From a virus, in the UHGV virus genome UHGV-0164601: DNA of 40,804 nt; one strand, given 5' to 3'. The notes beneath the pieces are model-generated. The model was not told the DNA's origin. It worked only from the letters and a program-made list of their open reading frames with translations, and ran no database searches. A program made the position numbers and the translations under genes. Of this stretch, positions 5,026-34,231 are shown piece by piece (positions within the stretch are counted from its first letter, which is position 1; each line of letters starts with the position of its first letter).

Positions 5026-5040
5026 TTACCGTTGAGGTAA
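5026..5040. promoter_or_regulatory. Operator-like palindrome TTACC-GTTGA-GGTAA overlapping the predicted start of the leftward early transcript
   Basis: Perfect 5-bp inverted half-sites with 5-bp spacer; same motif recurs at more than 10 operon starts. Confidence 0.55.
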
Positions 5041-5068
5041 TAATTATGCGTATATGGTTTGATGTCAA
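5041..5068 (-). promoter_or_regulatory. Candidate sigma70 promoter of the leftward early operon
   Basis: Perfect -35 TTGACA on the minus strand (5068..5063) with an AT-rich -10-like hexamer (CATAAT-like, about 5048..5043); bracketed by palindromes at 5026-5040 and 5088-5102. Confidence 0.45.
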
Positions 5069-5087
5069 TAGATATGAGTTAAAAAAA

Positions 5088-5102
5088 TTACCCGTTAGGT
5101 AA
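5088..5102. promoter_or_regulatory. Operator-like palindrome TTACC-CGTTA-GGTAA upstream of the early-left -35
   Basis: Perfect copy of the recurring 15-bp palindrome. Confidence 0.55.
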
Positions 5103-5112
5103 TCGAATAGGC

Positions 5113-5138
5113 AATAAAAAAGCCGCCATAAGGCGGCT
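5113..5138 (-). terminator. Rho-independent terminator after the repressor gene
   Basis: 7-bp GC stem (AGCCGCC/GGCGGCT), 4-nt loop, followed on the minus strand by TTTTTATT. Confidence 0.6.
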
Positions 5139-5159
5139 TACTTACTGAAAAATATGGTT

Positions 5160-5744
5160 TTATTGTTTGTTTTTTTCGTTCTGGTTGATGACAAATTCAA
5201 TGTAACTTTCGATCTTTGCTTTCTCGGTTTCGGGTAACAATGCGTAGCGCGAGCGATCATAGTTGATGGTCGCAGGGTCGTGCGGGTGAATCAGTAATTC
5301 ATAGCCGTGACGCCCGAATGCGGATGCAACATTCTCCAGGGTGGAAATGGAAACGCTGACCTCATTGTTTAACAGGCGGCTGATTGTCACCTGGGCGACG
5401 CCGGATGCGCGGTGAAGTTTTCCCTGTGTTGAAAGGTCGCGGCTTTCGCTCATCCAGCGTTCCAGGTTGTGAGCCGCCAGCTGGCCAATGTCGCTTGGGC
5501 CGACAGGCTGAAAACCTTCCTGAGAAAGCGAGCGATCGATATCAAGCCAGTTACGGGGTTTATTGGCGGCAGCTTCAATTTTTCGCGCAACCTGATCGCC
5601 GATAACCTTCTTACCAAGAGCCCAGCGGTTTACCAGATTTGCCTGAGTTCCAAGTTTTTCAGCCATCCGCGTCTGAACACCATTGAATTCACGGTCGATC
5701 AAGTCGTTGAGATTTTGCCTGCGGACGTCCTGGATACTTTTCAT
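5160..5744 (-). CDS. Prophage repressor, double helix-turn-helix, no LexA-like S24 peptidase domain
   Basis: N-terminal XRE-type HTH (QTRMAEKLGTQANLVNRWALGKKVIGDQVARKIE) and a second HTH-like segment (VAQVTISRLLNNEVSVSISTLENVASAFG); divergent from a Cro-like gene; no Ser-Lys autocleavage module seen. Confidence 0.65.
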   Translation of the reverse strand: MKSIQDVRRQNLNDLIDREFNGVQTRMAEKLGTQANLVNRWALGKKVIGDQVARKIEAAANKPRNWLDIDRSLSQEGFQPVGPSDIGQLAAHNLERWMSESRDLSTQGKLHRASGVAQVTISRLLNNEVSVSISTLENVASAFGRHGYELLIHPHDPATINYDRSRYALLPETEKAKIESYIEFVINQNEKNKQ

Positions 5745-5799
5745 TTTCTGGAAAATCGCCTCATATATGAATCAGTAGATGATTCAATTTAAAGCAATA

Positions 5800-5862
5800 T
5801 TACCCAACAGGTAAATGCACCTCATGGGTAACTATCCTTGATTTTTGTTACCTTATGGGTGA
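5800..5862. promoter_or_regulatory. Three tandem operator sites in the repressor/Cro-like intergenic region
   Basis: TTACC-CAACA-GGTAA (5800-5814), GCACC-TCATG-GGTAA (5817-5831), TTACC-TTATG-GGTGA (5848-5862). Confidence 0.6.
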
Positions 5863-5873
5863 ATATTTATTAT
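5845..5873 (+). promoter_or_regulatory. Candidate rightward early promoter (PR-like)
   Basis: -35 TTGTTA (5845-5850), 17-bp spacer, -10 TATTAT (5868-5873); the operator at 5848-5862 lies inside the spacer. Confidence 0.45.
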
Positions 5874-5898
5874 CTGAAATAAATATCAGGCAATAGCT

Positions 5899-6129
5899 AT
5901 GAGCGATAACGGACATTTCGATTTCAAAAAGCACTGGCTTGCACTTACTCCGGATGAGCGTGAAGCCTTCGCACAGGAAGCCGGAACGACGAGTCACTAT
6001 ATCCAGACTCACTTAACAGGTAAGCGCAAAATGCCAGGTAAAGTATTGATGAATGGGCTTTTTAAAGCCTGTAAAACAAGACAATGGCTGCGCTCAAAAG
6101 CAGAACTGGCATACTTCTTCTACTCATGA
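5899..6129 (+). CDS. Cro-like small HTH regulator
   Basis: 76-aa protein divergently transcribed from the repressor; HTH-like segment EAFAQEAGTTSHYIQTHLTGKRKMP; followed by a terminator. Confidence 0.5.
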   Translation: MSDNGHFDFKKHWLALTPDEREAFAQEAGTTSHYIQTHLTGKRKMPGKVLMNGLFKACKTRQWLRSKAELAYFFYS

Positions 6130-6150
6130 TATCCAGCTACAACCCTCTGT

Positions 6151-6174
6151 AGACCGCCATCCGGCGGTCTTTTA
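6151..6174 (+). terminator. Rho-independent terminator downstream of the Cro-like gene
   Basis: AGACCGCC-ATCC-GGCGGTCT hairpin followed by TTTT. Confidence 0.55.
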
Positions 6175-6184
6175 ATATCTATTA

Positions 6185-6199
6185 GCACCTTAAGGGTAA
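6185..6199. promoter_or_regulatory. Variant operator GCACC-TTAAG-GGTAA ahead of the replication operon
   Basis: One perfect GGTAA half-site and one GCACC half-site (same variant as 5817-5831); ATGTGGTT motif follows at 6211-6218. Confidence 0.4.
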
Positions 6200-6279
6200 T
6201 AAAAAACCAAATGTGGTTGATCTTTTTTTTGTGTCAGCACAAAATGACCGTAATCCCAATACTAATAACAGGGCTTACC

Positions 6280-6480
6280 ATGGAAATCATTACACGTATT
6301 GATGCCGCAAAGCGCGGACTTAAACGCTACTACACCGGAAAACCATGTAAGCACGGACATGACAGTGAACGCTGGGTTTACAACGGACACTGTGTTGAGT
6401 GCACCATGGAATCAAACCGTCGCATCAGGGCTGAGATTAAGCAGATCATGATTAATTCCTCCCCACAACATTCAAGCTGA
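6280..6480 (+). CDS. Hypothetical small Cys/His-rich protein (possible zinc-binding regulator)
   Basis: 66-aa frame MEIITRIDAAKRGLKRYYTGKPCKHGHDSERWVYNGHCVEC; start chosen at ATG 6280; the alternative ATG at 6211 lacks a Shine-Dalgarno. Confidence 0.35.
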   Translation: MEIITRIDAAKRGLKRYYTGKPCKHGHDSERWVYNGHCVECTMESNRRIRAEIKQIMINSSPQHSS

Positions 6481-6495
6481 TAGCGGAGATTAATC

Positions 6496-7311
6496 ATGAG
6501 CAGACATGCAACAGATTGGGCCTGGGAGACAGATCCAGGTAGCTCGTCATTAAAGCTCATACTGCTCTCGATGGCTGACAGAGCCGATGAATATAACCTC
6601 TGCTACCCCAGCATAGAACGCCTCGTTAAAGACACTTGCCTGAATAAAAAAACCGTGCAGGCCGGGCTTATATCGCTCATGAAAATGGGGCTTATTTCAG
6701 ATACCGGAGAGAGAAAGGGGGCGACGAAAAGAGTACGGGTTTTCTCTCTTAATATAACCAAAAACGGGAACATTAAAGGCAACCGGGAAGGGGGTAATGA
6801 ACCCGAAAACGGTAATGTTACCGGAAACGGGAATATACCCAAAAACGGGATGTTGAATGATCCCAAAAACGGGATGTTGAATGATCCCAAAAACGGGATC
6901 CAGAACCAGTCATATAACCAGTCATTTAACCAAGAGAGGGAGAGCAGGACAAAAAGCGGGGATTCTGTGCCTCATGACCCCGGCGCAAACAACGCCGTGA
7001 TGAATAACTTTGTTCCTCCTGGTGGGCCAGGGCAATTAGGCAAATTTGTCATGCATGAACAATGGCAGCCATCAGATGACTTTCTTCGGAAAAGCTCATT
7101 GCAGGGGATCTACCTGGACAGTCTGCCAACGGCACAGGAACTTGCAGAGTTCAGAATTTACTGGATGGCTGAGGGTAAGGCATACCATCAGGCACAGTGG
7201 GAGCAGAAGCTGGCAAGGCGGCTGCAGATTAGCAGACAGAAGCAATCAACATTACCTGATAACAACGTTCCGCACTGGAACAGCCCTGAAGCATGGGAGG
7301 ATTTCTTGTGA
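6496..7311 (+). CDS. Replication initiator, lambda O-like (winged-helix N-terminus, iteron-encoded low-complexity middle)
   Basis: N-terminal DWAWETD...LKLILLSMADRADEY...ERLVKDTCLNKKTVQAGLISLMKMGLIS; central NG-rich repeats encoded by the iteron array; followed by a P-like gene. Confidence 0.75.
   Translation: MSRHATDWAWETDPGSSSLKLILLSMADRADEYNLCYPSIERLVKDTCLNKKTVQAGLISLMKMGLISDTGERKGATKRVRVFSLNITKNGNIKGNREGGNEPENGNVTGNGNIPKNGMLNDPKNGMLNDPKNGIQNQSYNQSFNQERESRTKSGDSVPHDPGANNAVMNNFVPPGGPGQLGKFVMHEQWQPSDDFLRKSSLQGIYLDSLPTAQELAEFRIYWMAEGKAYHQAQWEQKLARRLQISRQKQSTLPDNNVPHWNSPEAWEDFL
6758..6900. repeat. Iteron array (candidate origin of replication) inside the O-like gene
   Basis: AAAACGGGA-type repeats at about 6758, 6801, 6821; two perfect 24-bp direct repeats CCCAAAAACGGGATGTTGAATGAT at 6838-6861 and 6862-6885; partial third copy 6886-6900. 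Confidence 0.6.
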
Positions 7312-8093
7312 ACAACGTTTTTACCGCGATACAAAACCGTGACGGAGAAGCCCTTTCTCGCATGTCAGGTTATGAGCATCAGTACGTCAACAATGACAAT
7401 GTGGTGAACATGTCAGCAGAGAGGCTTGTTGATGCTCTTTTCAAACAGCTGAAACAGCTGTTTCCGGCGGCAGTGGTAACCAACCTGAAGACGCCAGAGC
7501 AGGAAGTTGCTGCAAAACAGCAGTGGATTGCTGCGTTTGCCGAAGGTGGGATCCGAACCCGTGAACAGGTTTCTGCTGGTATGCGCCACGCCCGCGCCAG
7601 TGAATCTCCGTTCTGGCCGTCGCCAGGGCAATTTATCAAGTGGTGCAAAGACAGCAAGATGGTTCTTGGCGTCACCATTGACGATGTGATGGCGGAGTTT
7701 CACCGGTACAGCAAGGAAAAAAGTTTATATCCTGGTGGTCCCGAAAGATTCCCGTGGCGACATCCGGTTATGTACTGGGTCGTATGTGATACCCGCCGTG
7801 CAATGTATCAGCGCCAGCTTAGCGAGATTGAGGTTGAGAAACACGCGCGCAGGCTGCTCGATGATTGGGCGAAAAAGGTGGCTTCCGGACAGCAGATACC
7901 CGATCCGGTGATCAGCATACAGGCAAAGCCAGAACCCATGAGTACGCCTCCGGACACAGGGAGAGACGTTTACCATCCACCAGGGCGAAGTTTCGGGTGT
8001 ATGCCTAACGCCGCCACCCTGGGGGGAATAACACCGGCGCAGTGGCTGATGGAGGAATACAGGCGGGGAAAGGCGGCAGGATTTATCAAGTAA
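7308..8093 (+). CDS. Replication protein P-like (helicase loader)
   Basis: Segment QQWIAAFAEGGIRTREQVSAGMRHARASESPFWPSPGQFIKWC matches the conserved core of lambda P; start set at GTG 7308 (GGGAGG 7 nt upstream, GTGA overlap with O stop); ATG 7293 is the alternative. Confidence 0.75.
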   Translation: MNNVFTAIQNRDGEALSRMSGYEHQYVNNDNVVNMSAERLVDALFKQLKQLFPAAVVTNLKTPEQEVAAKQQWIAAFAEGGIRTREQVSAGMRHARASESPFWPSPGQFIKWCKDSKMVLGVTIDDVMAEFHRYSKEKSLYPGGPERFPWRHPVMYWVVCDTRRAMYQRQLSEIEVEKHARRLLDDWAKKVASGQQIPDPVISIQAKPEPMSTPPDTGRDVYHPPGRSFGCMPNAATLGGITPAQWLMEEYRRGKAAGFIK

Positions 8094-8098
8094 TACCA

Positions 8099-8118
8099 GC
8101 GCGATAGCGCATTTTTTT
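8099..8118 (+). terminator. Weak terminator-like hairpin plus T7 run after the P-like gene
   Basis: Short GCGC/GCGC stem followed by TTTTTTT. Confidence 0.3.
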
Positions 8119-8130
8119 ACGCCCACATGA

Positions 8131-8145
8131 TTACCTGATGGGTAA
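8131..8145. promoter_or_regulatory. Operator-like palindrome TTACC-TGATG-GGTAA
   Basis: Perfect copy; 34 bp upstream of the ATGTGGTT motif at 8180-8187. Confidence 0.5.
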
Positions 8146-8192
8146 TAAAATATTCTAGTATCTATTAATTTCATGTCTTATGTGGTTTTTAA

Positions 8193-8207
8193 TTACCTAA
8201 GGGGTAA
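8193..8207. promoter_or_regulatory. Operator-like palindrome TTACC-TAAGG-GGTAA overlapping the ribosome-binding site of the next gene
   Basis: Perfect copy ending 3 nt before ATG 8211; the AAGGGG centre doubles as the Shine-Dalgarno. Confidence 0.5.
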
Positions 8208-8210
8208 ATC

Positions 8211-8555
8211 ATGAGAAAACAGATACAGGCTCTTGGTCGGCTCAAAACAGGCCAGATGAACAAAACAGAATCTGCGTATTGCCAGCACCTTGAGCTGCGT
8301 AAACGTGCAGGGGAAATCGCATGGTATCGATTCGAGGGTATCAAGCTGCGGTTAGCTGACAACACGTTCTATACGCCAGATTTCGCTGTGATGCTCGCCA
8401 CCGGAGAGATGGAACTGCACGAAGTGAAAGGTTTCTGGACCGACGACGCCAGGGTGAAAACCAAAGTCGCCGCAGATCAGTATCCGTTCCGAATCATCGG
8501 GGTAACGGTTAAACCAAAGAAAGCAGGTGGTGGCTGGAACATCGAAGAGTTCTGA
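8211..8555 (+). CDS. DUF1064-like phage protein (putative nuclease-fold protein of replication/nin regions)
   Basis: 114 aa; pattern AYCQHLELRKRAGEIAWYRFEGIKLRL...YTPDFAVML...ELHEVKG resembles DUF1064 family members. Confidence 0.5.
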   Translation: MRKQIQALGRLKTGQMNKTESAYCQHLELRKRAGEIAWYRFEGIKLRLADNTFYTPDFAVMLATGEMELHEVKGFWTDDARVKTKVAADQYPFRIIGVTVKPKKAGGGWNIEEF

Positions 8556-8616
8556 ATCGACGATCTTTTTAGTTATCAATGTAATCAATAAGTTATGTGG
8601 ATAAGCGAGGGTAAAG

Positions 8617-9162
8617 ATGGAAAGTATGGCTGAAGGTATGATCAAAGATTTAGTGGCATCAGGGCATGCGTTAGCTGACGACATGACAGGCGCACCATCC
8701 GTGCTTGTTCGCTGTTTGGCAGCGCAACTGGAAGTTCAGTTGGTGCGTGCTAATGAGCTGGCCGAAGACCACCAGAGAGCGATTGAGTCAATTAAGCAGG
8801 CTGATGCAGCTGTTAAGTTGGCACACGAGAAGTTTTCGACGCTGGCAGCGGAGAATGCGGGGCTAAAGGCGATATGTGATGACCGTCGCAGATTCATCAT
8901 GAATGGGGTGCAGATGGGTTATATCAAGGTGCCAGCAGCGGAAACAGATCCAGACCTTGAGACAATTCGCATTGCTATATCACCACAAAAGCCCATTCCA
9001 GCCACCGATGCTTTCCTGACTGAAATTGAACGCAAAGCAATCCGAAAGTTCATTAACAGCATTGAACACATCCTGCGTGACAAGTTGTCACCGTATGACA
9101 CCGAAGAGATGCTTGAGACTATGCGCATTTTTCTGGAAGAACAGGGAGGCGAGCAAAAATGA
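8617..9162 (+). CDS. Hypothetical phage early protein (181 aa, coiled-coil-rich)
   Basis: GAGGG Shine-Dalgarno before ATG 8617; no recognisable domain. Confidence 0.5.
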   Translation: MESMAEGMIKDLVASGHALADDMTGAPSVLVRCLAAQLEVQLVRANELAEDHQRAIESIKQADAAVKLAHEKFSTLAAENAGLKAICDDRRRFIMNGVQMGYIKVPAAETDPDLETIRIAISPQKPIPATDAFLTEIERKAIRKFINSIEHILRDKLSPYDTEEMLETMRIFLEEQGGEQK

Positions 9163-9473
9163 CAATCACAAAACAACGAGTAGAAAAAATCATATATCGC
9201 CATGAAATGGGACTGAACAGCGATGTCACTGCCGAAGAGGTTTATGACCTGGCTGTACTGGCGCTGAATTTATCAAATATCGCAAACCTCAAGCGATACG
9301 AGCTTGATATGGGTGGTTGTGACTCGTGCGGTCAGGATTGTGGCGCTGACATGACAGAAGATTCTGATGGCGATTATGTCCTGTTTGATGACGTGGTTAA
9401 GTTGTTTGAGTTTGATACAACCACTCAGAAGATAGAAAGCCCAGCAAAGGAGGCAACCAGTGAGCAAGATTGA
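9159..9473 (+). CDS. Hypothetical phage early protein (104 aa)
   Basis: GGAGG before ATG 9159; ATGA overlap with upstream stop. Confidence 0.5.
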   Translation: MTITKQRVEKIIYRHEMGLNSDVTAEEVYDLAVLALNLSNIANLKRYELDMGGCDSCGQDCGADMTEDSDGDYVLFDDVVKLFEFDTTTQKIESPAKEATSEQD

Positions 9474-9903: not shown

Positions 9904-9904
9904 T

Positions 9905-10192
9905 ATGGCAACTTTGCAGGAATTAATCGACCTGACGCCAGAACAGGAAAAAGCGTGGAATCGCCTTGTGAAGGCTGTAAAGGATTTCAGGGCAGCCGGA
10001 GGAAAGTTTTATAGCGTCCTGGACACGCTGAGCGCATACAACGGCGAGCACGTTGCCAGCATTGATAACGATAAGGGCTACCACACTGCAAGCGTCTATA
10101 TGCCTAGCATTGATGCGCCAGGGCTAACCAGTTGGGCTGATGATTGGCACGGCATCACGCTGAAAGATGGCGTTGAAGTGGATGAGGACTAA
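9905..10192 (+). CDS. Hypothetical protein (95 aa)
   Basis: Start placed at ATG 9905 (MATLQEL), 2 nt after the upstream stop, GGAGAG upstream. Confidence 0.45.
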   Translation: MATLQELIDLTPEQEKAWNRLVKAVKDFRAAGGKFYSVLDTLSAYNGEHVASIDNDKGYHTASVYMPSIDAPGLTSWADDWHGITLKDGVEVDED

Positions 10193-10195
10193 CAC

Positions 10196-11023: not shown

Positions 11024-11297
11024 CCTGCAACTTGCCGTCAAAGGTGAATACTTCGATGCCATGATTCGCGGAGAGAAAACGGAAGAGTATCGCCTGTGTA
11101 ATGACTACTGGAATAAGCGAATTATGTTCCGGGAGTATGACCGCCTGATTATCACAAAGGGATATCCGAAGCGCGACGATTCCAGCCGCAGAATTGATAT
11201 TCCGTATGACGGATATGAAATCAAGACAATCACACATCCGCACTTCGGTGATAAACCGGTAAAGGTGTTCGCGATAAAGGTAAATATTGATGGCTAA
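11016..11297 (+). CDS. ASCH-domain protein
   Basis: GTG 11016 preceded by AGGAGG; LAVKGEYFDAMIRGEKTEEYR is a typical ASCH beta-barrel opening. Confidence 0.5.
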   Translation: MANLQLAVKGEYFDAMIRGEKTEEYRLCNDYWNKRIMFREYDRLIITKGYPKRDDSSRRIDIPYDGYEIKTITHPHFGDKPVKVFAIKVNIDG

Positions 11298-11628
11298 ATC
11301 AGCAGCAGAGCGCAAAGCCGCTCAGAGAGCCAGACAAGCTGCATCTGGTGTGCGTAAGCTGGAGATTGTGCTTGATGCTCAGGAAATTGAAATGCTGGAG
11401 CGTAACTGTGCCACGCGTCGCCCCGGGCGTGCGCCTTACGAATTTGGTGAGTATATAGCGTTACTGATCCGCCAGGATGATGCACGCGTGCGCGGGCGTA
11501 TAAAATCGATCAGCAGAAAACGTTGCGGTAAGTGCGGCGAGAGAGTTCCAGTTAATTCATGCCCGTGTAATGGTGACTCGCAATGCTGGGTGACTAAAGG
11601 CTGGCATGAAACGAAATTAATAGTGTGA
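11290..11628 (+). CDS. Hypothetical basic protein with C-terminal Cys cluster (possible regulator)
   Basis: 112 aa; Lys/Arg-rich N-terminus and CGKCGERVPVNSCPCNGDSQC; last gene before the terminator preceding the terminase operon. Confidence 0.45.
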   Translation: MAKSAAERKAAQRARQAASGVRKLEIVLDAQEIEMLERNCATRRPGRAPYEFGEYIALLIRQDDARVRGRIKSISRKRCGKCGERVPVNSCPCNGDSQCWVTKGWHETKLIV

Positions 11629-11677
11629 CATGTCACGAGTAGATTATGCATGATGAATTTGATGGATTTTGAATACT

Positions 11678-11703
11678 GCCGCCAACTATGGCGGCTTTAT
11701 TTT
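11678..11703 (+). terminator. Rho-independent terminator between the nin-like operon and the terminase operon
   Basis: GCCGCC-AACTAT-GGCGGC hairpin followed by TTTATTTT. Confidence 0.6.
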
Positions 11704-11714
11704 GCATGGTACTA

Positions 11715-11729
11715 TTACCACAACGGTAA
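11715..11729. promoter_or_regulatory. Operator-like palindrome TTACC-ACAAC-GGTAA upstream of the small terminase gene
   Basis: Perfect copy; a variant TTACC-ACGGT-GGTTA follows at 11733-11747 overlapping the terS ribosome-binding site. Confidence 0.5.
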
Positions 11730-11746
11730 CAATTACCACGGTGGTT

Positions 11747-12343
11747 ATGATGCCTGCTGAACCTAAAACCTATAAACGCAAATCAACGCAATTTAAGCCG
11801 CTCACAGCAATGCAGGAGGCTTATTGCCAGTCATACATCAAAACGCCTGAAAACCAGACTCAGGCTGCGATTAACGCAGGATTCTCCCCAAATACAGCGG
11901 CAGTTAAAGCCAGTGTCATGATGCGCGATGAACGCATTCAGAAACGGATTGCCGAGTTGATGGAGGAGCGCAACAAACGAATGCGTGTCAGTGCTGATTA
12001 CGTTCTCATGCGCCTGGTGGAGATCGACCAGATGGACGTGATCGACATCCTCAACGACGATGGGAGCCTTAAACCAATCCGTGAGTGGCCGAAAATCTGG
12101 CGCACTACGCTTAGTGGCTTTGATCTGTCATCGACCATCATGAACATGAACGAGGATTCAATAGAGACAATCCTCAAAAAAATTAAATGGCCTGACAAGG
12201 TGAAGAACCTTGAGCTGATTGGTAAGCATGTTGATGTCAACGCATTCAAAGAACGTCTGGATGTTAATGTGAATGTGACAATTGCTGATCGCATAGCAGC
12301 AGCCAGGAAGCGACTCAAAGAACGTCAGGATGGTAATCAGTGA
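11747..12343 (+). CDS. Terminase small subunit (Terminase_2-like)
   Basis: YCQSYIKTP...TQAAINAGFSPNTAAVKASVMMRDERIQKRIAEL matches the small-terminase HTH pattern; start at ATG 11747 (GGTGG upstream); upstream TTG-initiated extension rejected. Confidence 0.7.
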   Translation: MMPAEPKTYKRKSTQFKPLTAMQEAYCQSYIKTPENQTQAAINAGFSPNTAAVKASVMMRDERIQKRIAELMEERNKRMRVSADYVLMRLVEIDQMDVIDILNDDGSLKPIREWPKIWRTTLSGFDLSSTIMNMNEDSIETILKKIKWPDKVKNLELIGKHVDVNAFKERLDVNVNVTIADRIAAARKRLKERQDGNQ

Positions 12344-13815: not shown

Positions 13816-13855
13816 TCCGCTGGTGGGGATAATGTCGTTGATATCCTCTGATGAG

Positions 13856-14325: not shown

Positions 14326-14336
14326 AATCTCACCTT

Positions 14337-14523: not shown

Positions 14524-14600
14524 TGGCGTGGCATGCAGGATTCGAACCTGCGACCAACCGCTTAGAAGGCGGTTGCTCTGTCCAACTGAGCTAATGCCAC
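14524..14600 (-). tRNA. tRNA-Arg, anticodon UCU (decodes AGA), phage-internal
   Basis: 77-nt cloverleaf read from the reverse complement: acceptor GTGGCAT/ATGCCAC, D-arm GCTC/GAGC, anticodon stem ACCGC/GCGGT with loop CTTCTAA, T-arm GCAGG-TTCGAAT-CCTGC, discriminator G, encoded CCA. Confidence 0.85.
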
Positions 14601-14922: not shown

Positions 14923-14937
14923 TTACCTGAAAGGTAA
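14923..14937. promoter_or_regulatory. Operator-like palindrome TTACC-TGAAA-GGTAA upstream of the portal operon
   Basis: Perfect copy; 44 bp upstream of ATGTGGTT (14982-14989). Confidence 0.5.
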
Positions 14938-15027
14938 TAATTCGCGCGTTAAATGTCAACTATCTACGATAAATAAATCATATGTGGTTAAATTGGTAAT
15001 AATTTAATTGCGTACGGAGTCATTGAT

Positions 15028-19805: not shown

Positions 19806-20129
19806 ATGGAACTCGTAAACCTCAAAACCGGCACTGACAGCTACCAGGATGAGAGCGGAGAAACCAGAACTCGCGATGAATACCCGTGGGAGCTGTGCAT
19901 CACTCTTAATAACGACACATTGAATAAGCTGAAGGCGCAACCTCAGGGCGTCGGAACAGAAGTGATGATAACTGCAAAGGCTGTTATTCGAGGCCTGTCT
20001 GCCAGAGAAACTGACGATGGTGTTAATCGCAGCGCCGATCTGCAGATCACTGATATGGCGATCGCTCCTGTTTCCAGGGATGTAGAAAAATCAGCGGCTG
20101 AAACTCTGTACGGTAACGGAGGTGAGTGA
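19806..20129 (+). CDS. Hypothetical virion/assembly protein (107 aa)
   Basis: AGGAG 6 nt before ATG 19806. Confidence 0.5.
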   Translation: MELVNLKTGTDSYQDESGETRTRDEYPWELCITLNNDTLNKLKAQPQGVGTEVMITAKAVIRGLSARETDDGVNRSADLQITDMAIAPVSRDVEKSAAETLYGNGGE

Positions 20130-29900: not shown

Positions 29901-30377
29901 GCACAGCATAACAGGGTGCTGGTATCTGGTATCCAGCAGGGCGATGCTGCATTCTATCTTGGTGCGCTTGGCACGATTGCGCTTGGCTCAATGGTCTATA
30001 TGATGAAACAGAAGTTAAGCGGTCGCGATATCGACTACAGCTGGAATAACCTTGTGAAAGAGGGGATCGACCGGGGCGGAATGCTTGGCTGGCTCTCTGA
30101 GCCGCTGAATACCGTTGAGAACATAAGCGGCGGTAGGTTTGGTCTTGGCGCGATGTTTGGTGCGCCTCCGGTATCAAGGTTTCAGAGTCGTAATGCTATT
30201 GGTGCTTTACTTGGTCCTACCTTTGATCTTGGCGGTGATGCCGCGACGGTTGCAAATGGTGTACTTAACGGAGAATTTGACAGCCAGCAAACCCACGCTG
30301 TCCGTAAAATGCTACCTTTTCAGAATCTGTGGGCGATATCACCATTACTAAATAAAGTTGAAGAGCAGATGAAATAG
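26988..30377 (+). CDS. Internal virion (core/ejection) protein D-like, 1129 aa
   Basis: Largest ORF of the structural module, immediately after the 915-aa core gene, as T7 gp16 follows gp15. Confidence 0.5.
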   Translation: MPIYEQDPKELLGEDIQQIAAPDDSNFYMETPSLLSAVNPFTSDQRVQRSRQAAFRIDNTLGSFIASAPFSQFDRVEGYNPFDNDAADIKGYEDFADSFINSGSHEETMAIKHRIDKQRTDREYLSEMGGAGTISSLAMGMIDPVNVAAMFIPVGAVARGGSIAETAGRFALANAAGGGVSEAALQATQEARSPMESVSNVVVDALVGGILGAGAQLLAGPSAREAVVNSVGNHLRGMDSPQSIGAAQVFNTTLDQEQLAGLGLANKTLSVTPAGRLAQSPSLVSRQINQQLAENNYFFAKNDEGLATFTAVETKIKQYDAMLYKQMEATRDAYQQYSKSVSARGVKRMNFIDFNEAVGMAMRRGDQSDIPEVSQAAARIRPIFETTKARMQELGILPEDIDVVTAKSYLPRIYKFDKILSDRTEFRGRIANWIQGISAKGADKAGQRIEKINSLLKTAEESAPRADALASEIAEAEKWSGKKILLMEELDKRNKLISQETDTQARLTRIEKELAETSSEKLQARMMKESSDLKTRLDDIAQAKSELPVYQRHMELLDNPRKYRSELRRLQKRANSTTRLNASRERALKQMEPLSREEAEDAADEIVNKIIGAPSGLVPADIIPERLVGRAGFTKSRTLLIPDERIEDFLESDVNYIMESYLRQVAPEIELTAQFGRKDMGEQIRQVSEEYTRLIKEAKTPKRRAVLEKQREADIRDITAMRDRLLGTYGAPQDPRSFFVRAGRVARNINFLRLLGGMTVSAATDLMRPMMQHGLRKSLGPMVSMLKNMDSVKIATRDLREMAVGLDYVLSTRTKAIADLTDPYSRRSAAERGLNWMTQKFGNWTLMNQWNSALKSWSGMIVQSRILDAARQVSAGGTLSKSEMRKMAQVGINEDVLRRIGEQFGKHGEDMDGLLTGHSHLWDDRFAREIFQSAVLKDVDSVIVTPGVGDTPLFFSKEGWKMITQFKTFIFAQHNRVLVSGIQQGDAAFYLGALGTIALGSMVYMMKQKLSGRDIDYSWNNLVKEGIDRGGMLGWLSEPLNTVENISGGRFGLGAMFGAPPVSRFQSRNAIGALLGPTFDLGGDAATVANGVLNGEFDSQQTHAVRKMLPFQNLWAISPLLNKVEEQMK

Positions 30378-30378
30378 G

Positions 30379-31230
30379 ATGAAAAAAATAAATTTGTTTT
30401 TTGGCATAGTGCTTTCAATAGTCTCTGTAAATCCTACAGCTGCCAGTTCATTGCAATGCAATAAGGATAACTTTGATGCATGCAAAACGTGCGAACAATT
30501 ATCAAAGGCTATCGACTTAAAAGAACCTAATCGTGGCGATTACTATAGAGGGGCTTTATGGAATGGGCTTTACGCCTCTTATGTAATTAATTGCCCTGTG
30601 GTTGCAGAGAAGTTACTGAGCCATGGTGCTATACCATCATATGGCGGATATATGGGGTCTATGGGGGCGGTTCTGACAGGAAAATGGCCTCATAACAATG
30701 AATCAATAAATCTTTCATGGGCAGATTTGCTTATAAAACATGGATTTGATGTTAATAGGCATACGGGGAATTATAAATCAGCTACTGAAGTATGGGCTAT
30801 AGATAAAAAACAGATTGAATATAAGTCAGTTTTTGACAAGTTAATTCAATCCAGCGAAGTAAAACCACTCGATCCTTCAAGAAATTTAGAATGGTGTGCG
30901 TCTGAAGGGTATCGCTCAGTTGTCGTTTATTCCCTTAACTCATGTATAGAAAATGCTATAAAACGTTTGGATGACGGTGTTTCTTCAGCGTCTGATATTT
31001 CATCAGCAGCCGTAAATTCCTGTACTAGCGATGTAGAAAATTTCAATAAGCATTTGGCATGCAAAGCAGCTGTTAAAGAAAACTCTGATAAAGAGAGAAG
31101 CAACGTTTACCAGTTATTAACCAGTGATAGTCAAATGAATAAAAATGTTATTGATATGCTGAAGGAAAGAAATATTGAAACGGTTCTTGAATTTAGAGCT
31201 GAAAATCGATCAGCGAAAACTGCACAGTGA
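30379..31230 (+). CDS. Secreted protein of unknown function (moron), possible ankyrin-like repeats
   Basis: Signal-peptide-like N-terminus MKKINLFFGIVLSIVSVNPTAASS; visibly AT-rich codon usage; LL.HGA / LLIKHGFDVNRHT ankyrin-like segments; own terminator. Confidence 0.55.
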   Translation: MKKINLFFGIVLSIVSVNPTAASSLQCNKDNFDACKTCEQLSKAIDLKEPNRGDYYRGALWNGLYASYVINCPVVAEKLLSHGAIPSYGGYMGSMGAVLTGKWPHNNESINLSWADLLIKHGFDVNRHTGNYKSATEVWAIDKKQIEYKSVFDKLIQSSEVKPLDPSRNLEWCASEGYRSVVVYSLNSCIENAIKRLDDGVSSASDISSAAVNSCTSDVENFNKHLACKAAVKENSDKERSNVYQLLTSDSQMNKNVIDMLKERNIETVLEFRAENRSAKTAQ

Positions 31231-31236
31231 TCAAAC

Positions 31237-31261
31237 AGGCCGCTTTCGCGGCCTTGTTTTT
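31237..31261 (+). terminator. Rho-independent terminator after the secreted-protein gene
   Basis: AGGCCGC-TTTC-GCGGCCT hairpin followed by TGTTTTT. Confidence 0.6.
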
Positions 31262-31300
31262 AACGAATGCCACCGCCGCCTGGGTGGGAATCCGCAGACA

Positions 31301-31323
31301 CAAAAAAGCCCGCGCCGCGGGCT
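31301..31323 (-). terminator. Rho-independent terminator of the minus-strand two-gene cassette
   Basis: GCCCGC-GCC-GCGGGC hairpin containing the stop codon, followed on the minus strand by TTTTTTGT. Confidence 0.5.
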
Positions 31324-31762
31324 ATTCTTCTTCATCATAAAAAAGCGGATTGTCGTTTCCATCTGATGAAAGGAAAGGTATGTGTTCTCTTGAAAATCCA
31401 ACAACGACAATTTCATTATCATTTTTTGCATAATGAATGCATTCATTAGAATGCATTCCGCCAGGGTTGAAATTTAAGTTAATGGTATAATTCTTAAATG
31501 TGTTTGGATACCATGTTGGCCCACAATGATAATGCCAATAATTCTCTTGCTCATAATTGTCTGAGCCGGGAATTTTATCATGGTTATCATCAACCCACGA
31601 TGGCTTGTTTTTTCCAACAAGCGCCCTTCCATTGGCAACATCTTCTAAAAACCTTTGTATGATTTTTATTTCATCGTCAGTAAGGAAAGGTCCGTCTACA
31701 GCGAAAGGGGTGTTGCTTTCCCCATTTAGAAAACTATTAGATATTCTAATGTTAAACTTCAA
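31322..31762 (-). CDS. Hypothetical protein (146 aa), distal gene of a two-gene moron cassette
   Basis: TTG start at 31762 with AGGAG 6 nt upstream; AT-rich; conserved-looking YWHYHCGP segment; acidic C-terminus FYDEEE; no family recognised. Confidence 0.5.
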   Translation of the reverse strand: MKFNIRISNSFLNGESNTPFAVDGPFLTDDEIKIIQRFLEDVANGRALVGKNKPSWVDDNHDKIPGSDNYEQENYWHYHCGPTWYPNTFKNYTINLNFNPGGMHSNECIHYAKNDNEIVVVGFSREHIPFLSSDGNDNPLFYDEEE

Positions 31763-31782
31763 GACAAACTCCTAATGTGCTT

Positions 31783-31950
31783 CTATTTGGAGCGAAATGC
31801 CGCCTTGAAGTCGCTGAAAGATGTTCCTGTCTGGTAAACCATATCCTTGTCGCGCTCTTTGCTTGCGCGGCCAAGCATAACTTTTCCAATGACATCCCAG
31901 CATTGCTTGGCTTGTTCATTGTGCTGAGTACGATTTTTCAACGCTGTCAT
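31783..31950 (-). CDS. Hypothetical small protein (55 aa), proximal gene of the two-gene cassette
   Basis: Not in the ORF track (<60 aa); ATG 31950 preceded by AGGAGG (31957-31962); MTALKNRTQHNEQAKQCWDVIGKVMLGRASKERDKDMVYQTGTSFSDFKAAFRSK. Confidence 0.45.
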   Translation of the reverse strand: MTALKNRTQHNEQAKQCWDVIGKVMLGRASKERDKDMVYQTGTSFSDFKAAFRSK

Positions 31951-31962
31951 ATCGCGCCTCCT

Positions 31963-31977
31963 TTACCTTTAAGGTAA
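31963..31977. promoter_or_regulatory. Operator-like palindrome TTACC-TTTAA-GGTAA between the predicted -10 and the ribosome-binding site of the cassette
   Basis: Perfect copy immediately upstream of the AGGAGG Shine-Dalgarno. Confidence 0.5.
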
Positions 31978-32005
31978 TAGTACGCTATTCACCCACAGTC
32001 TGCAA
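31977..32005 (-). promoter_or_regulatory. Candidate sigma70 promoter of the two-gene cassette
   Basis: Minus strand -35 TTGCAG (32005..32000), 17-bp spacer, -10 TACTAT (31982..31977). Confidence 0.4.
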
Positions 32006-32050
32006 TCTGTACAGAATTATTTAAAGGCACATCCCTGTGCCGCCGTTCTG

Positions 32051-32737
32051 TCAGAAGAACCCTGCCTTGTCGTTGATGTACTCCGCGTGCGTCTGGATAT
32101 CACGCAGGCATTTGCTCACACCGACGATGTAGCAGAACATGGTGGTCAGTTCCGCCGCCGCGCCCGATACATCATGCCCGTCGTCCTGCAACTGATTCAG
32201 CAGATTCATCAGCAATGAGTTCTCCGTCAGGCCGAGAACACCCGACGGCGAATGAATCAGACTGCGGTAGCCTGGCTTCAGTGGGGCACTGTAGGTTTTG
32301 TTCTCTATCTTCATCGCCTGCATTACTGCTGACGCCGTGGCGTTGGCTACCTGGTCGGCAACCATCTTTATGCGCTCTTCCTGCGGGAGCGAGTTTTTAA
32401 TGTAGCTTCCGGTGCGGCGGATCTGAGGAAGAACCTCACCTGTAACCCATTTGCGAAAGCGGTAGGGGATAGTGCCTGGTGTCACTGCGTCGCGGCAGCG
32501 GAGGATCAGTGTGTAGAGGCCTGACTCGTTGATAATATTGGTTTCGCCTTGACGGCCTAAGTTAAATTTAGCCCTTTCATCATCATCAAGAGATTTTATT
32601 GACATAGTGGGGTTTGTCAGTTGAAGAGCTTTAATAACGTCTTTGGCAACAAACCAAGGATTTCCATCAATAACAATGGCTCGAATGGTTGCTTCTGATT
32701 CAAAATGAAAAACAGATGGGGTTACGTTAGCAGTCAT
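32051..32737 (-). CDS. Phage antirepressor (BRO-N domain with KilA-C/Ant-type C-terminal domain)
   Basis: N-terminal FHFESEATIRAIVIDGNPWFVAKDVIKALQL...ESGLYTLILRCRDA is a typical BRO-N motif; start at ATG 32737 (AAGGTG upstream) rather than the ORF-track start 32890, which would run through the leader hairpin. Confidence 0.75.
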   Translation of the reverse strand: MTANVTPSVFHFESEATIRAIVIDGNPWFVAKDVIKALQLTNPTMSIKSLDDDERAKFNLGRQGETNIINESGLYTLILRCRDAVTPGTIPYRFRKWVTGEVLPQIRRTGSYIKNSLPQEERIKMVADQVANATASAVMQAMKIENKTYSAPLKPGYRSLIHSPSGVLGLTENSLLMNLLNQLQDDGHDVSGAAAELTTMFCYIVGVSKCLRDIQTHAEYINDKAGFF

Positions 32738-32890
32738 AGTGATCACCTTTGTAGTTAGGTTAATCACCACTACCGACGCCAATCGGTTGGTGGTGAACTG
32801 TGCAGGGTTGGCGTAACCGGCTACAAAGGACCCGGCGCACCTTTCGGTGCCCCCACACAGCCCACCATAGAATAGGTGCGCTTTACACAT

Positions 32891-32909
32891 AAAAAAACCG
32901 CTTATGCGG
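32891..32909 (-). terminator. Weak terminator/attenuator-like hairpin in the antirepressor leader
   Basis: CCGC-TTAT-GCGG hairpin followed on the minus strand by TTTTTTT. Confidence 0.3.
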
Positions 32910-32924
32910 CATATGTGCCTCTGT

Positions 32925-32976
32925 AGTAATCCGGGACGCCAATCCCGGCACTGGATTTTGCCAGTGCCCGATTACT
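32925..32976. other. Structured element (nested inverted repeats) upstream of the antirepressor; candidate leader RNA or small RNA
   Basis: AGTAATCCGGG...CCCGATTACT outer stem enclosing hairpins CCGGGA-CGCCAA-TCCCGG and CACTGG-ATTTTG-CCAGTG. Confidence 0.3.
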
Positions 32977-33003
32977 ATGGCACAAGAGGAGTGCAATGTA
33001 AAT

Positions 33004-33018
33004 TTACCGTAAAGGTAA
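33004..33018. promoter_or_regulatory. Operator-like palindrome TTACC-GTAAA-GGTAA
   Basis: Perfect copy in the divergent region between the antirepressor and the membrane zinc-ribbon gene. Confidence 0.5.
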
Positions 33019-33096
33019 TGATAAGCGCGAAGAAACATTAAAATCAACCGTATTTGGTTGATTGCGTTTAACGCTTGATCACCTGAAAGCAAGATA

Positions 33097-33111
33097 TTAC
33101 CTTTAAGGTAA
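33097..33111. promoter_or_regulatory. Operator-like palindrome TTACC-TTTAA-GGTAA
   Basis: Perfect copy 21 bp upstream of ATG 33132; identical sequence to the site at 31963-31977. Confidence 0.5.
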
Positions 33112-33131
33112 TGTTATTGTGAGGAAAAGCA

Positions 33132-33860
33132 ATGGAAGTTTTCTGGATAGTTGTTGGTGTGGTTGCGGTGATTATTTACGTTATCAACCAGAACAAGACT
33201 AAGATCTCTGATCGTACGGTCGTTAATCATAACAAAACGATAAAGACCGAAGATGGGGAGATAACGATTAATCGTACACAGGTGATAGAACACACCTCTA
33301 CTCAGTTTCAAAAAACTGGAGGTAATGCGCCTAATATTTCCGCACCTCCTGCTTATGATAGTGCGGTAATCCAGACATATTATAAACAGCAGGAGTTAGC
33401 AAAAGAGAGGCAACTGATTCAGCCAAAGCCGTTTACAGCTGAGATTCCACCTGGAGTGTCAACGCGTCCGGCATATCATGGAAGATTCCCTGGTGATGAC
33501 ATATCGTCTCAGTCATCTAAAAAAGCACCTCAGGCAATATCAGAGCCAGCAAGAATACCTTCTGTATCGCTGCCAAAAGAAGAATCAGCTAACAGAGTTT
33601 CAAGTGGTAGCAAGCAGTGCTTGCGATGCAGAATAAACCTTCCATATGAAAAATTCAGGAAATCGTCAAAAAATCCAGATGGATTGACTAAATGGTGTGC
33701 AAGGTGTCTCGATGGCCCAAAGAATACACGCCATATGAAGTGGTGCCCAATTTGTAATGTCCGCAGAAAACGAACCAGCTTTTACCCTAATAATCAAAAT
33801 GCGGACGGCTTAATGGCATGGTGCAAAACGTGCTGGGATGAGCACAAAGCGAAACGATAG
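33132..33860 (+). CDS. Membrane-anchored protein with duplicated CxxC-x22-WCxxC zinc-ribbon (rubredoxin-like) modules
   Basis: N-terminal hydrophobic helix FWIVVGVVAVIIYVI, Pro/Ser/Gln-rich linker, then CLRC...DGLTKWCARC and CPIC...DGLMAWCKTC repeats; GAGGA before ATG 33132. Confidence 0.6.
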   Translation: MEVFWIVVGVVAVIIYVINQNKTKISDRTVVNHNKTIKTEDGEITINRTQVIEHTSTQFQKTGGNAPNISAPPAYDSAVIQTYYKQQELAKERQLIQPKPFTAEIPPGVSTRPAYHGRFPGDDISSQSSKKAPQAISEPARIPSVSLPKEESANRVSSGSKQCLRCRINLPYEKFRKSSKNPDGLTKWCARCLDGPKNTRHMKWCPICNVRRKRTSFYPNNQNADGLMAWCKTCWDEHKAKR

Positions 33861-33884
33861 GCCGCTCTTGCGGCCTTTAAATTT
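33860..33884 (+). terminator. Rho-independent terminator after the zinc-ribbon gene
   Basis: GGCCGC-TCTT-GCGGCC hairpin followed by TTTAAATTT. Confidence 0.55.
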
Positions 33885-34140
33885 ACCGGGTTTGTTTTCG
33901 TAATTGTTCGGCACAATAGTCGAGATGTGTTTGCAGATCCCGCATAGACATCTGTGAGCTGGTGACGTAGTTAATCAGTGCAGTCAGTTCGGCAAGTGGG
34001 CCATCGACATTAAATCCATCCTTATCGAGATCCCGGAGTAATTTCATCAAGTGCGATCCCTCCACCAGTGACCTGACGCCTCCCGGCGTGTGAATCCTTT
34101 CGGTAAATCCGTCTTCCAGTGGATAGTGATACTGCTGCAT
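33883..34140 (-). CDS. Small antirepressor-like protein (85 aa), stand-alone paralog of the antirepressor C-terminal domain, with a LexA box in its promoter
   Basis: TPGGVRSLVEGSHLMKLLRDLDKDGFNVDGPLAELTALINYV...MRDLQTHLDY aligns with the C-terminus of the 32051-32737 protein (SPSGVLGLTENSLLMNLLNQLQDDGHDVSGAAAELTTMFCYI...LRDIQTHAEY); start at ATG 34140 with GGAG upstream. Confidence 0.55.
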   Translation of the reverse strand: MQQYHYPLEDGFTERIHTPGGVRSLVEGSHLMKLLRDLDKDGFNVDGPLAELTALINYVTSSQMSMRDLQTHLDYCAEQLRKQTR

Positions 34141-34159
34141 CTTATCTTCTCCATGCAAT

Positions 34160-34179
34160 AACTGTATATTTATACAGTA
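34160..34179. promoter_or_regulatory. LexA (SOS) box
   Basis: AACTGTATATTTATACAGTA: CTGT-N8-ACAG with an AT-only spacer, 18 of 20 matches to the E. coli consensus TACTGTATATATATACAGTA; 20 bp upstream of ATG 34140. Confidence 0.65.
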
Positions 34180-34216
34180 GCAAATAATTTGTTTGCTATC
34201 CAGCACGTTTTGCAAA

Positions 34217-34231
34217 TTACCCGAAAGGTAA
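34217..34231. promoter_or_regulatory. Operator-like palindrome TTACC-CGAAA-GGTAA
   Basis: Perfect copy between the SOS-box gene and the tailspike gene; 32 bp upstream of ATGTGGTT (34264-34271). Confidence 0.5.

Follow-up and report, generated by a model that had tools for sequence, protein, structure and literature searches.

Dispersed palindromes as probable operators of the Rep repressor in an E. coli Uetakevirus prophage

The window analysed here (the whole 40,804-nucleotide stretch of UHGV virus genome UHGV-0164601) is a Uetakevirus prophage of the E. coli phiV10/epsilon15 type, and the TTACC-N5-GGTAA palindromes that it carries are, with a probability of about 0.8 as judged from sequence comparison, operators of the prophage's own repressor Rep, which would make this the E. 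coli counterpart of the epsilon15/SPC32H Rep/Ant system (Table 1). All 11 perfect copies lie at the coordinates given in the original prediction; the number expected from dinucleotide shuffles is 0.01 on average, with none of 100 shuffles reaching 11. TTACC-N5-GGTAA is the sole over-represented palindrome of the 5-Nx-5 form in the window (at most three copies of any palindrome in the shuffles). A pattern scan that included the coding regions found the perfect copies confined to intergenic DNA. On a gene map transferred from phiV10/TL-2011b, such DNA makes up 7.5% of the window, all 11 sites are wholly intergenic (P ~4e-13), and a site is present in 10 of the 18 gaps between genes that measure 40 bp or more. 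Four one-mismatch variants had also been proposed, of which those at 5848 and 11733 hold and those at 5817 and 6185 have two mismatches each; a further one-mismatch copy, missing from the original prediction, is found within coding sequence at 37842 and is no more than chance would give (0.63 expected). The extended operator consensus is A-TTACC-(A/T-rich 5)-GGTAA-T, with A or T as the central base in 98% of symmetrised sites, and operator spacings are quantised (62 bp 11 times, 18 bp seven times and 48 bp four times). The palindrome set is a real and orderly layout, but one previously annotated for the phage genus.

Table 1. Operators and associated features, in window coordinates.
Feature	Position	Strand	Remarks
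OL1, perfect operator	5026..5040		spans about −7 to +8 of leftward early promoter PL
OL2, perfect operator	5088..5102		62 bp (centre to centre) upstream of OL1, just past rep terminator 5120-5139
rep, 194-aa repressor	5160..5744	−	100% identity to phiV10 gp40; full-length match to SPC32H Rep
OR-a, perfect operator	5800..5814		closest to rep start
OR-b, two-mismatch operator	5817..5831		GCACC...GGTAA; 17 bp from OR-a
OR-c, one-mismatch operator	5848..5862		fills spacer of rightward promoter PR, −35 TTGATT 5838-5843
cro-like small regulator, 76 aa	5899..6129	+	divergent from rep; phrog_35 'transcriptional repressor', E 5.6e-13
Two-mismatch operator	6185..6199		past terminator 6151-6170, ahead of replication operon; left half GCACC
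Perfect operator	8131..8145		past replication-operon terminator, ahead of DUF1064/nin-like operon
Perfect operator	8193..8207		62 bp from 8131; ends 3 nt short of ATG at 8211
Perfect operator, terminase promoter	11715..11729		directly past terminator 11678-11695
One-mismatch operator	11733..11747		18 bp downstream of 11715; overlaps terS ribosome-binding site
Perfect operator	14923..14937		upstream of gp3-like gene and portal/head operon
Perfect operator, two-gene accessory cassette	31963..31977		genes 31783-31950 and 31322-31762, both minus strand
Perfect operator	33004..33018		upstream of isrK-like RNA/C4 antisense RNA/Bro-N antirepressor module
Perfect operator	33097..33111		upstream of zinc-ribbon gene 33132-33860 (+); 93 bp from 33004
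ant, 85-aa small antirepressor	33883..34140	−	phrog_450; 85% identity to SPC32H Ant, 99% to phiV10 p24
LexA box CTGT-N8-ACAG upstream of ant	34162..34177		read from sequence; kept in phiV10, epsilon15, SPC32H
Perfect operator, ant/tailspike divergent region	34217..34231		candidate tailspike promoter spacer
Possible degenerate operator (tentative), 2 mismatches	37586..37600		gap upstream of lysis cassette

The palindrome occurs at matching syntenic places in phiV10, TL-2011b, epsilon15, SPC32H, a Serratia prophage (L007) and a metagenomic relative (L009). In the window, TL-2011b, the Serratia prophage and the metagenomic contig it ranks first among palindromes (6-11 perfect copies each), and phiV10, epsilon15 and SPC32H hold 8-11 perfect copies each. 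Motif scans found no copies in two relatives with the portal gene but without Rep, nor in an Stx-phage fragment carrying the C4/isrK module; judged by these scans, the motif travels with Rep. Seven sites in the epsilon15 record (GenBank AY150271.2), including those before terS, the portal operon, the tailspike gene, PL and the nin-like region, are labelled 'protein_bind: repressor', and all seven overlap perfect TTACC-N5-GGTAA copies in our scan, out of 11 such copies in that genome. The regulon-wide layout, which the original prediction held to be atypical, is not new, and the 'protein_bind' features may themselves be predictions. The epsilon15 repressor sites were reportedly treated by Kropinski et al. 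in 2007, and the Rep/Ant immunity of SPC32H is said to have been described by Kim and Ryu in 2013 and Kim et al. in 2016. The window is like epsilon15 in having a homologous repressor and the palindrome before terS, the portal operon, the tailspike/ant region, PL and the nin-like unit; it differs in adding accessory-cassette operators at 31963, 33004 and 33097, absent from epsilon15, in having two OL sites where epsilon15 has three, and in its weaker OR-b and OR-c. The sites at 14923 and 34217 have annotated repressor-binding equivalents in epsilon15 (2931-2947 and 19895-19911, respectively), OR-b aligns with a perfect TTACC site in epsilon15/SPC32H, its GCACC variant being found also in the Serratia and metagenomic relatives, and the phiV10 equivalent of 6185, at 33112, has one mismatch. 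In the gap equivalent to 37586, where the alignment is poor, relatives have a site that is perfect or one base off.

Rep aligns end to end with SPC32H Rep (PDB 5D50; E 4e-42) and comprises an N-terminal HTH DNA-binding domain, a second HTH-like domain and a C-terminal tetramerisation/Ant-binding region; overall it is 42% identical to the epsilon15 repressor and 41% to SPC32H Rep. Across 14 homologues, with identities as low as 41%, the recognition-helix segment Q34-ANLVNRW41 hardly varies, which accounts for one operator sequence being used across hosts. SPC32H Rep contacts palindromic DNA in tetrameric form and Ant breaks this tetramer (PMC9638917); the tetramerisation domain of this Rep resembles DNA-looping domains (PMC9986798). 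The original view of the sites as protein operators with the 194-aa double-HTH repressor as the best candidate binder is well supported. The binder was envisaged there as dimeric; the SPC32H homologue is described as a tetramer and not a simple dimer when on DNA (PMC9638917). The biochemistry of E. coli Rep is limited to over-expression: the identical ZX5/phiV10 repressor, when over-expressed, abolished free phage, lowered holin transcription by 99.97% and likewise shut down endolysin transcription (PMC9782041), although this shutdown may be an indirect effect.

Promoter-like matches in the promoter scans are overall not above chance, and promoter geometry is kept across lineages at PL, terS and PR. 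At PL, TTGACA(5068-5063)-17-AATTAT(5045-5040) is kept in five lineages and the final T of the −10 is operator base 1; similarly, the extended −10 of the terminase promoter, TGgTACTAT (11707-11715), ends at operator base 1, with TGnTA(C/G)TAT kept in the window, epsilon15, SPC32H and the metagenomic relative, and TGtTATGAT, shifted by 1 nt, in the Serratia prophage. A candidate promoter TTGCAG(32005-32000)-17-TACTAT(31982-31977), placed by eye and unlisted in the promoter scan, ends on the 31963 operator. A repressing position is well supported at four places, namely PL, PR, the 31963 cassette and the terminase promoter, where the operator overlaps the spacer, −10 or start. It needs qualifying at 5800 and 33004, each within 1-2 bp of a candidate −35 (2 bp for OR-a, from a by-eye TTGCTT for leftward rep transcription), a placement that would suit an activating or autoregulatory site just as well. 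For the portal, tailspike, lysis, nin-like and replication units it is not established, because better −10-like hexamers and a second conserved palindrome, AACC-N6-GGTT, which lies 20-53 bp from several operators, are found 20-53 bp downstream of the operator. The 34217 operator fills the 16-bp spacer of a candidate TTGCAA(34210-34215)...TATCTA(34232-34237), with hexamers placed by eye.

Several sites lack a convincing overlapping promoter, and the dispersed sites could mainly be roadblocks or insulators, with Rep past terminators or in 5′ leaders stopping read-through as at the 'stoperators' of mycobacteriophage L5. The operators at 5088, 6185, 8131 and 11715 lie directly past terminators, and those at 8193, 11733 and 31963 are in the leader, on or beside the ribosome-binding site (the true terS start probably lies near 11749). 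We consider this unlikely, given that the operator overlaps conserved −10 or spacer elements at PL, terS, PR and 31963 and that palindromic sites are without the orientation dependence that defines stoperators; stopping read-through may, moreover, be an extra role of Rep and not an alternative.

Operators of Rep would also govern accessory genes. At 33004, a candidate leftward promoter TTGATT-18-TATCAT ends at 33018, and a second candidate, TTTACA-17-CATAGT, has its predicted start at the isrK 5′ end (32967); the operator is centred 44 bp upstream of this Rfam-defined end. TL-2011b carries the 33004/33097 pair at equal spacing. Behind the isrK-like and C4 RNAs lies the second antirepressor of the window, a Bro-N protein with its C-terminus in Ant's PHROG. 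The unit of isrK-like RNA, C4 RNA and antirepressor gene headed by 33004 resembles P1 immI (c4 antisense RNA, icd, ant) and the Gifsy-type isrK locus, and Stx phages share the RNA part but not the operator-bearing upstream DNA. The immI-like RNA module is apparently wired into the resident Rep regulon.

Another phage regulator, for example the cro-like protein or a 113-aa regulator encoded at 11287-11628, just upstream of terS, might be the main binder of the dispersed copies and leave Rep only OL/OR. Synteny with the motif is as good for these two genes as for rep (the cro-like gene matches phiV10 p41 and epsilon15 gp39), both fall in 'transcription regulation' PHROGs, and in lambdoid switches Cro shares the operators of CI. 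With recognition helix and motif both invariant, computation cannot separate Rep from syntenic regulators such as the cro-like protein. Such a division is nevertheless quite improbable: there is no sequence distinction between dispersed and OL/OR copies, the epsilon15 authors assign the sites to the repressor, a lytic-phase protein on the terS start site would block the late genes, and Rep is the family's demonstrated binder of palindromic DNA (PMC9638917). Still less probable is that the palindrome acts in RNA, as a small hairpin attenuating translation or stabilising transcripts or as a weak terminator. The 21-nt segments do fold (−3.3 to −7.2 kcal/mol) and the 3′ arm, the right half of the operator, holds the Shine-Dalgarno sequence at 8193 and 11733, but the hairpins are weak and without T-runs, the stem keeps one sequence throughout the five lineages (45 sites), compensatory changes being absent and the centre simply A/T-rich, and the sites occur in both transcriptional orientations and also upstream of predicted start sites. 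Hardly any weight can be given to readings in which the palindrome is bound by a host transcription factor, serves as a target of restriction-modification or methylation, or is a repeat that is mobile or arose by chance: the motif is common to Escherichia, Salmonella and Serratia phages, whose hosts share many regulators, but no enterobacterial regulator is known to us that recognises it, a target of restriction or methylation should not be limited to 7.5% of the DNA, the shuffles exclude chance, the unrepeated flanks speak against a mobile element, and the Stx-phage fragment with the same RNA module is without the motif.

With Rep as the binder, a pair of N-terminal HTH domains would read one A-TTACC-N5-GGTAA-T dyad, and the tetramer, with two such pairs, would clamp two dyads, which would explain why, at PL and at the nin-like unit, operators recur in pairs 62 bp (~six helical turns) apart. 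In the lysogen, Rep would cover the start or the spacer at PL, PR, the terminase promoter and one or more accessory-gene promoters, and would also lie where the replication, nin-like, portal, tailspike/ant and immI-like units begin, or close by; since each unit begins past a terminator, every unit would be held off separately and not via a cascade. Upon DNA damage, LexA would leave the ant promoter and Ant would dismantle the Rep tetramer, releasing all units. Direct repression of late promoters by Rep, Rep binding at each site in this phage and looping are what we infer from this arrangement.

Among known systems, that of SPC32H (PDB 5D50, 5D4Z) is close: its Rep is homologous over the full length, its Ant is 85% identical, the LexA box at ant is conserved and the operator set matches, although its Rep is only 41% identical overall and the window also has the Bro-N antirepressor. 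As in lambda CI/Cro, divergent rep and cro-like genes surround a tripartite OR, OL lies at the early-left promoter and palindromic operators are read by HTH domains; unlike in lambda, the operators extend beyond OL/OR, Rep is inactivated by an antirepressor, no LexA-like autocleavage domain was found in it (only HTH Pfam families), and no N/Q-type cascade is evident. P1 C1 and L5 gp71 are, like Rep, single immunity repressors with at least 10 genome-wide sites that control many units directly. Their sites are asymmetric and bound by monomers, and the stoperators of L5 work in a single orientation, inside transcribed regions. In the window, by contrast, an unrelated repressor would read sites that are symmetric dyads and often come in phased pairs.

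The genome-wide operator layout is already known for the genus, though unannotated in E. coli. What is added here are the quantised spacings (62, 18 and 48 bp), the operators on accessory cassettes, the second conserved palindrome AACC-N6-GGTT, and a conserved promoter arrangement, seen at PL, at the terminase promoter and at a moron promoter, whereby the last base of the −10 is also operator base 1.

An exhaustive scan of both strands recovered 11 perfect copies of TTACC-N5-GGTAA in the window, the same 11 that had been picked out in the original prediction, against a mean of 0.01 in dinucleotide-shuffled sequence. When all palindromes of the 5-Nx-5 form were enumerated, this was the sole over-represented one (11 copies versus at most three for any palindrome in the shuffles). 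All 11 are intergenic (P ~4e-13), as had been claimed, on a gene map carried over from phiV10 and TL-2011b in which intergenic DNA makes up 7.5% of the window; they are spread over eight separate intergenic regions, and of the 18 such regions measuring 40 bp or more, 10 contain a copy with two or fewer mismatches. Permitting one mismatch in the window scan added the sites at 5848 and 11733 (sites are named by their first coordinate), while a one-mismatch copy at 37842, in a coding region, is at chance level (0.63 expected). Two of the four one-mismatch variants proposed earlier, 5848 and 11733, are thus retained, whereas 5817 and 6185 carry two mismatches each, with the left half GCACC in both. 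A reading of the palindrome as an RNA hairpin or terminator is weak, since the stems reach only -3.3 to -7.2 kcal/mol, T-runs are absent and the stem is invariant rather than covarying.

The window is a prophage of genus Uetakevirus (phiV10/epsilon15-like podophages). Its early region is ~97-98% identical to the E. coli phages PAS61, phiv142-3, phiV10 and TL-2011b, and 540 of 5,426 complete E. coli genomes contain the immunity region. The attachment core ATTGAGTGGGAATGATT has been published (PMC9782041), and its location in the window (see the table) places the right prophage end there, leaving the last 1.2 kb as flank. Two minus-strand genes lie in this flanking DNA, both also inside the TL-2011b record. 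A tRNA-Arg gene (anticodon TCT) is located between the terminase and portal modules, matched in position by a tRNA-Arg of SPC32H.

Coordinates of the features discussed, in the window and in related phages
Feature	Genome	Coordinates	Strand	Remarks
Rep gene	window	5160-5744	-	194 aa
Operator OL1	window	5026-5040		at PL
Operator OL2	window	5088-5102		at PL
Operators at Shine-Dalgarno sequences	window	8193-8207, 11733-11747, 31963-31977
terS ORF from first start	window	11669-12343
terS, GenBank annotation	phiV10	41-715
Attachment core	window	39626-39642
Flanking genes	window	39734-40273, 40289-40804	-	flanking DNA 39643-40804
tRNA-Arg gene	window	14524-14600	-
ant	window	33883-34140	-
LexA box	window	34162-34177		upstream of ant
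C4 antisense RNA	window	32786-32872	-	Rfam 79.5 bits
isrK RNA	window	32891-32967	-	Rfam 76.8 bits
Bro-N antirepressor gene	window	32051-32737	-
Rep operator of YafO-family cassette	TL-2011b	33333-33347		perfect
AACC-N6-GGTT, perfect	window	6205-6218, 33046-33059, 37646-37659
AACC-N6-GGTT, one mismatch	window	14976-14989, 34258-34271
AACC-N6-GGTT, weaker	window	8174-8187, 5046-5059
protein_bind (AY150271.2)	epsilon15	12-27		before terS
protein_bind (AY150271.2)	epsilon15	2931-2947		before portal operon
protein_bind (AY150271.2)	epsilon15	19895-19911		ant/tailspike region
protein_bind (AY150271.2)	epsilon15	32479, 32554, 32616		at PL
protein_bind (AY150271.2)	epsilon15	35906		nin-like unit

A motif search in related prophages gave perfect copies at syntenic places in epsilon15 (11), phiV10 (8), SPC32H (10) and TL-2011b (10). 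Across 45 sites from five lineages the consensus is A-TTACC-(A/T-rich)-GGTAA-T, and dyads of the form A-TTACC-N5-GGTAA-T are present at the early-left (OL) and OR sites and also head the terS, portal, tailspike/ant and nin-like units. Kropinski et al. reportedly described a 17-bp consensus of the ATTACC-N5-GGTAAT type in 2007. TTACC-N5-GGTAA is also the top palindrome in a Serratia prophage (Rep 53% identical; seven perfect copies in 20 kb) and in a metagenomic contig (Rep 56% identical; six in 16 kb), where the copies are located at OL, OR, terS and the portal operon. No copy was found in Sodalis phiSG1 or Vibrio 1.021.C, both of which have the portal gene in common and no Rep homologue, or in an Stx-phage fragment with the C4/isrK RNA module. 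Being a degraded mosaic, Sodalis phiSG1 was dropped as a module-swap control and serves only as a negative one. In the epsilon15 GenBank record (AY150271.2), seven protein_bind features bear the label repressor/lysogeny, and all seven overlap a perfect TTACC-N5-GGTAA. Operator sites are annotated in none of the E. coli phage records inspected, and literature text searches for the operator motif gave no relevant match. The atypical, regulon-wide architecture of the original prediction is thus real as a distribution of sites, but for this genus it was already recorded in the epsilon15 entry.

Rep, the 194-aa double-HTH repressor proposed earlier as the binder, is 100% identical to phiV10 gp40, and its residues 1-190 align to SPC32H Rep (PDB 5D50_A, E 4e-42, phmmer against PDB). 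By homology, its N-terminus holds an HTH DNA-binding domain and its C-terminus, which aligns to the part of SPC32H Rep that mediates tetramerisation, a tetramerisation/Ant-binding region. The SPC32H protein is a tetramer when bound to palindromic DNA, with DNA-binding domains paired from different dimers, and the tetrameric antirepressor Ant breaks the complex (PMC9638917); the domain through which this Rep tetramerises is similar to DNA-looping domains (PMC9986798). Furthermore, the ZX5 repressor, reported to be identical to phiV10 gp40, abolished free phage when over-expressed and lowered holin transcription by 99.97% (PMC9782041). Every testable defining feature of the epsilon15/SPC32H Rep system was found in the window. 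The presumed recognition helix, Q34-ANLVNRW41, hardly varies among 14 homologues down to 41% identity, so that one operator would serve phages of three host genera; because helix and operator are both invariant over this range, covariation cannot separate Rep from other syntenic regulators. The identification of the palindromes as Rep operators, as judged from homology to a palindrome-binding Rep and from the co-occurrence of motif and Rep, is well supported.

Cross-lineage alignments show real promoters at several of these putative operators. The early-left promoter PL reads TTGACA-17-(A/G)ATTAT in five of five lineages, and the first base of OL1 is the last T of its -10 hexamer, OL1 spanning about -7 to +8; OL2 lies 62 bp upstream of OL1. 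A conserved terminator immediately precedes the terminase unit, whose conserved extended -10, TGnTA(C/G)TAT (TGtTATGAT in Serratia), ends on an operator, with a second operator 18 bp downstream over the ribosome-binding site. The same design is seen at the 31963 accessory cassette, with a candidate TTGCAG-17-TACTAT whose hexamers were placed by eye and had been missed by the promoter scan. At the rightward promoter PR, the operator fills the spacer behind a conserved TTGATT. Total promoter-like matches in the sigma-70 scan were at or below chance, and we therefore used only matches with cross-lineage conservation; no promoter could be placed for the replication, nin-like, portal, tailspike and lysis units. 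Most units are preceded by a terminator, and each would therefore need a promoter of its own, in keeping with one operator set per unit.

A repressing position had been proposed for the palindromes, and the overlaps at PL, terminase, 31963 and PR agree with this, whereas 5800 (by the rep gene) and 33004 each lie 1-2 bp from a candidate -35 hexamer and not on a start site. This placement could reflect activation or autoregulation. The centre of the 33004 operator is 44 bp upstream of the isrK 5' end as defined by Rfam. For the late promoters, we infer that Rep would act as a direct repressor. Operator spacings are quantised across genomes (62 bp in 11 cases, 18 bp in seven and 48 bp in four, as well as 75/76 and 93 bp), 62 bp centre-to-centre corresponding to about six helical turns, and a single Rep tetramer may bridge the 62-bp operator pairs.

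The operators at 8193, 11733 and 31963 lie on or adjoin the Shine-Dalgarno sequence of the downstream gene, and in the first two of these the GG of the GGTAA/GGTTA half-site belongs to it. If transcribed, the dyad could pair and mask the Shine-Dalgarno sequence. The terS ORF taken from its first start, like the phiV10 GenBank annotation, spans both terminase operators; terS of epsilon15, SPC32H and RefSeq TL-2011b starts just past the second, and the true start in the window is therefore probably near 11749.

A second conserved dyad, AACC-N6-GGTT, often ATGTGGTT on the plus strand, is intergenic in all its copies and is kept at syntenic places in phiV10, epsilon15, SPC32H and TL-2011b. Its centre lies 19.5, about 41-43 or about 52 bp from that of a Rep dyad (range 19.5-52.5), approximately whole helical turns, which would put the two on roughly the same helical face. 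In the portal, tailspike and lysis units a -10-like hexamer follows it at a distance of 7 nt, so the Rep operator may sit well upstream of the start sites of those units, and AACC-N6-GGTT may mark activator-dependent middle or late promoters. Two candidate binders, a 113-aa regulator and the cro-like protein, had no match in Pfam, NCBIfam or PDB. The reading of ATGTGGTT as the start of a mini-ORF was ruled out, the Serratia relative having ATA at the same position.

Ant, the small antirepressor, is 85% identical to SPC32H Ant and is encoded divergently from the tailspike gene. A perfect LexA box, CTGT-N8-ACAG (CTGTATATTTATACAG), lies upstream of ant and is kept in phiV10, epsilon15 and SPC32H; Kim and Ryu are said to have found in 2013 that ant is under LexA control and that induction is mediated by Ant. 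The 33004 operator is separated from the Bro-N antirepressor gene by the C4 antisense and isrK RNAs, and the 33004 unit resembles the P1 immI module; Stx phages have only its RNA part in common, not the operator-bearing upstream DNA. Residues 145-226 of the Bro-N protein, its C-terminal part, belong to phrog_450, the family of the LexA-controlled Ant, and the prophage therefore has two Ant-domain proteins that are controlled differently. TL-2011b has a cassette for a YafO-family toxin with a perfect Rep operator at its head, by prediction another accessory module wired to the Rep operator.

In lambda, CI operators are confined to OL/OR and late genes are reached via a cascade, unlike the 11 perfect sites in eight regions here; CI also has a LexA-like (S24) autocleaving C-terminal domain, whereas Rep homologues match HTH Pfam families only, with only weak HTH-type matches in NCBIfam. 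The operators of P1 C1 and mycobacteriophage L5 gp71 are also spread over the whole genome, and at least 10 dispersed repressor sites are likewise found in the window. Those repressors bind, as monomers, asymmetric sites that are orientation-dependent, whereas the Uetakevirus sites are symmetric, perfect dyads and the repressor is tetrameric and antirepressor-controlled. Rep is predicted from sequence to be a functionally CI-like immunity repressor with genome-wide operators.

We tentatively propose, at a probability of roughly 0.3, that Uetakevirus uses a single-layer lytic programme, in which one antirepressor-sensitive tetrameric repressor would directly clamp every unit, including those of the late genes, by means of helically phased pairs of operators. 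Acquired cassettes would be wired in by gaining an operator, and AACC-N6-GGTT would mark a partner regulator that controls timing once repression is lifted. The additions made here are incremental (the phasing, -10 hexamers that as a rule end on the operator, the accessory-cassette operators and the second dyad), and they leave the current understanding of phage regulation unchanged. The operator, repressor and antirepressor form a compact, well-phased set that is directly testable. Identification of the Rep operators provides a ready transcription-unit map for an E. coli prophage type that is very common, and it predicts that accessory genes, namely the two-gene cassette, the Bro-N antirepressor module and the zinc-ribbon gene as well as the YafO toxin cassette of TL-2011b, would be silent in the lysogen.
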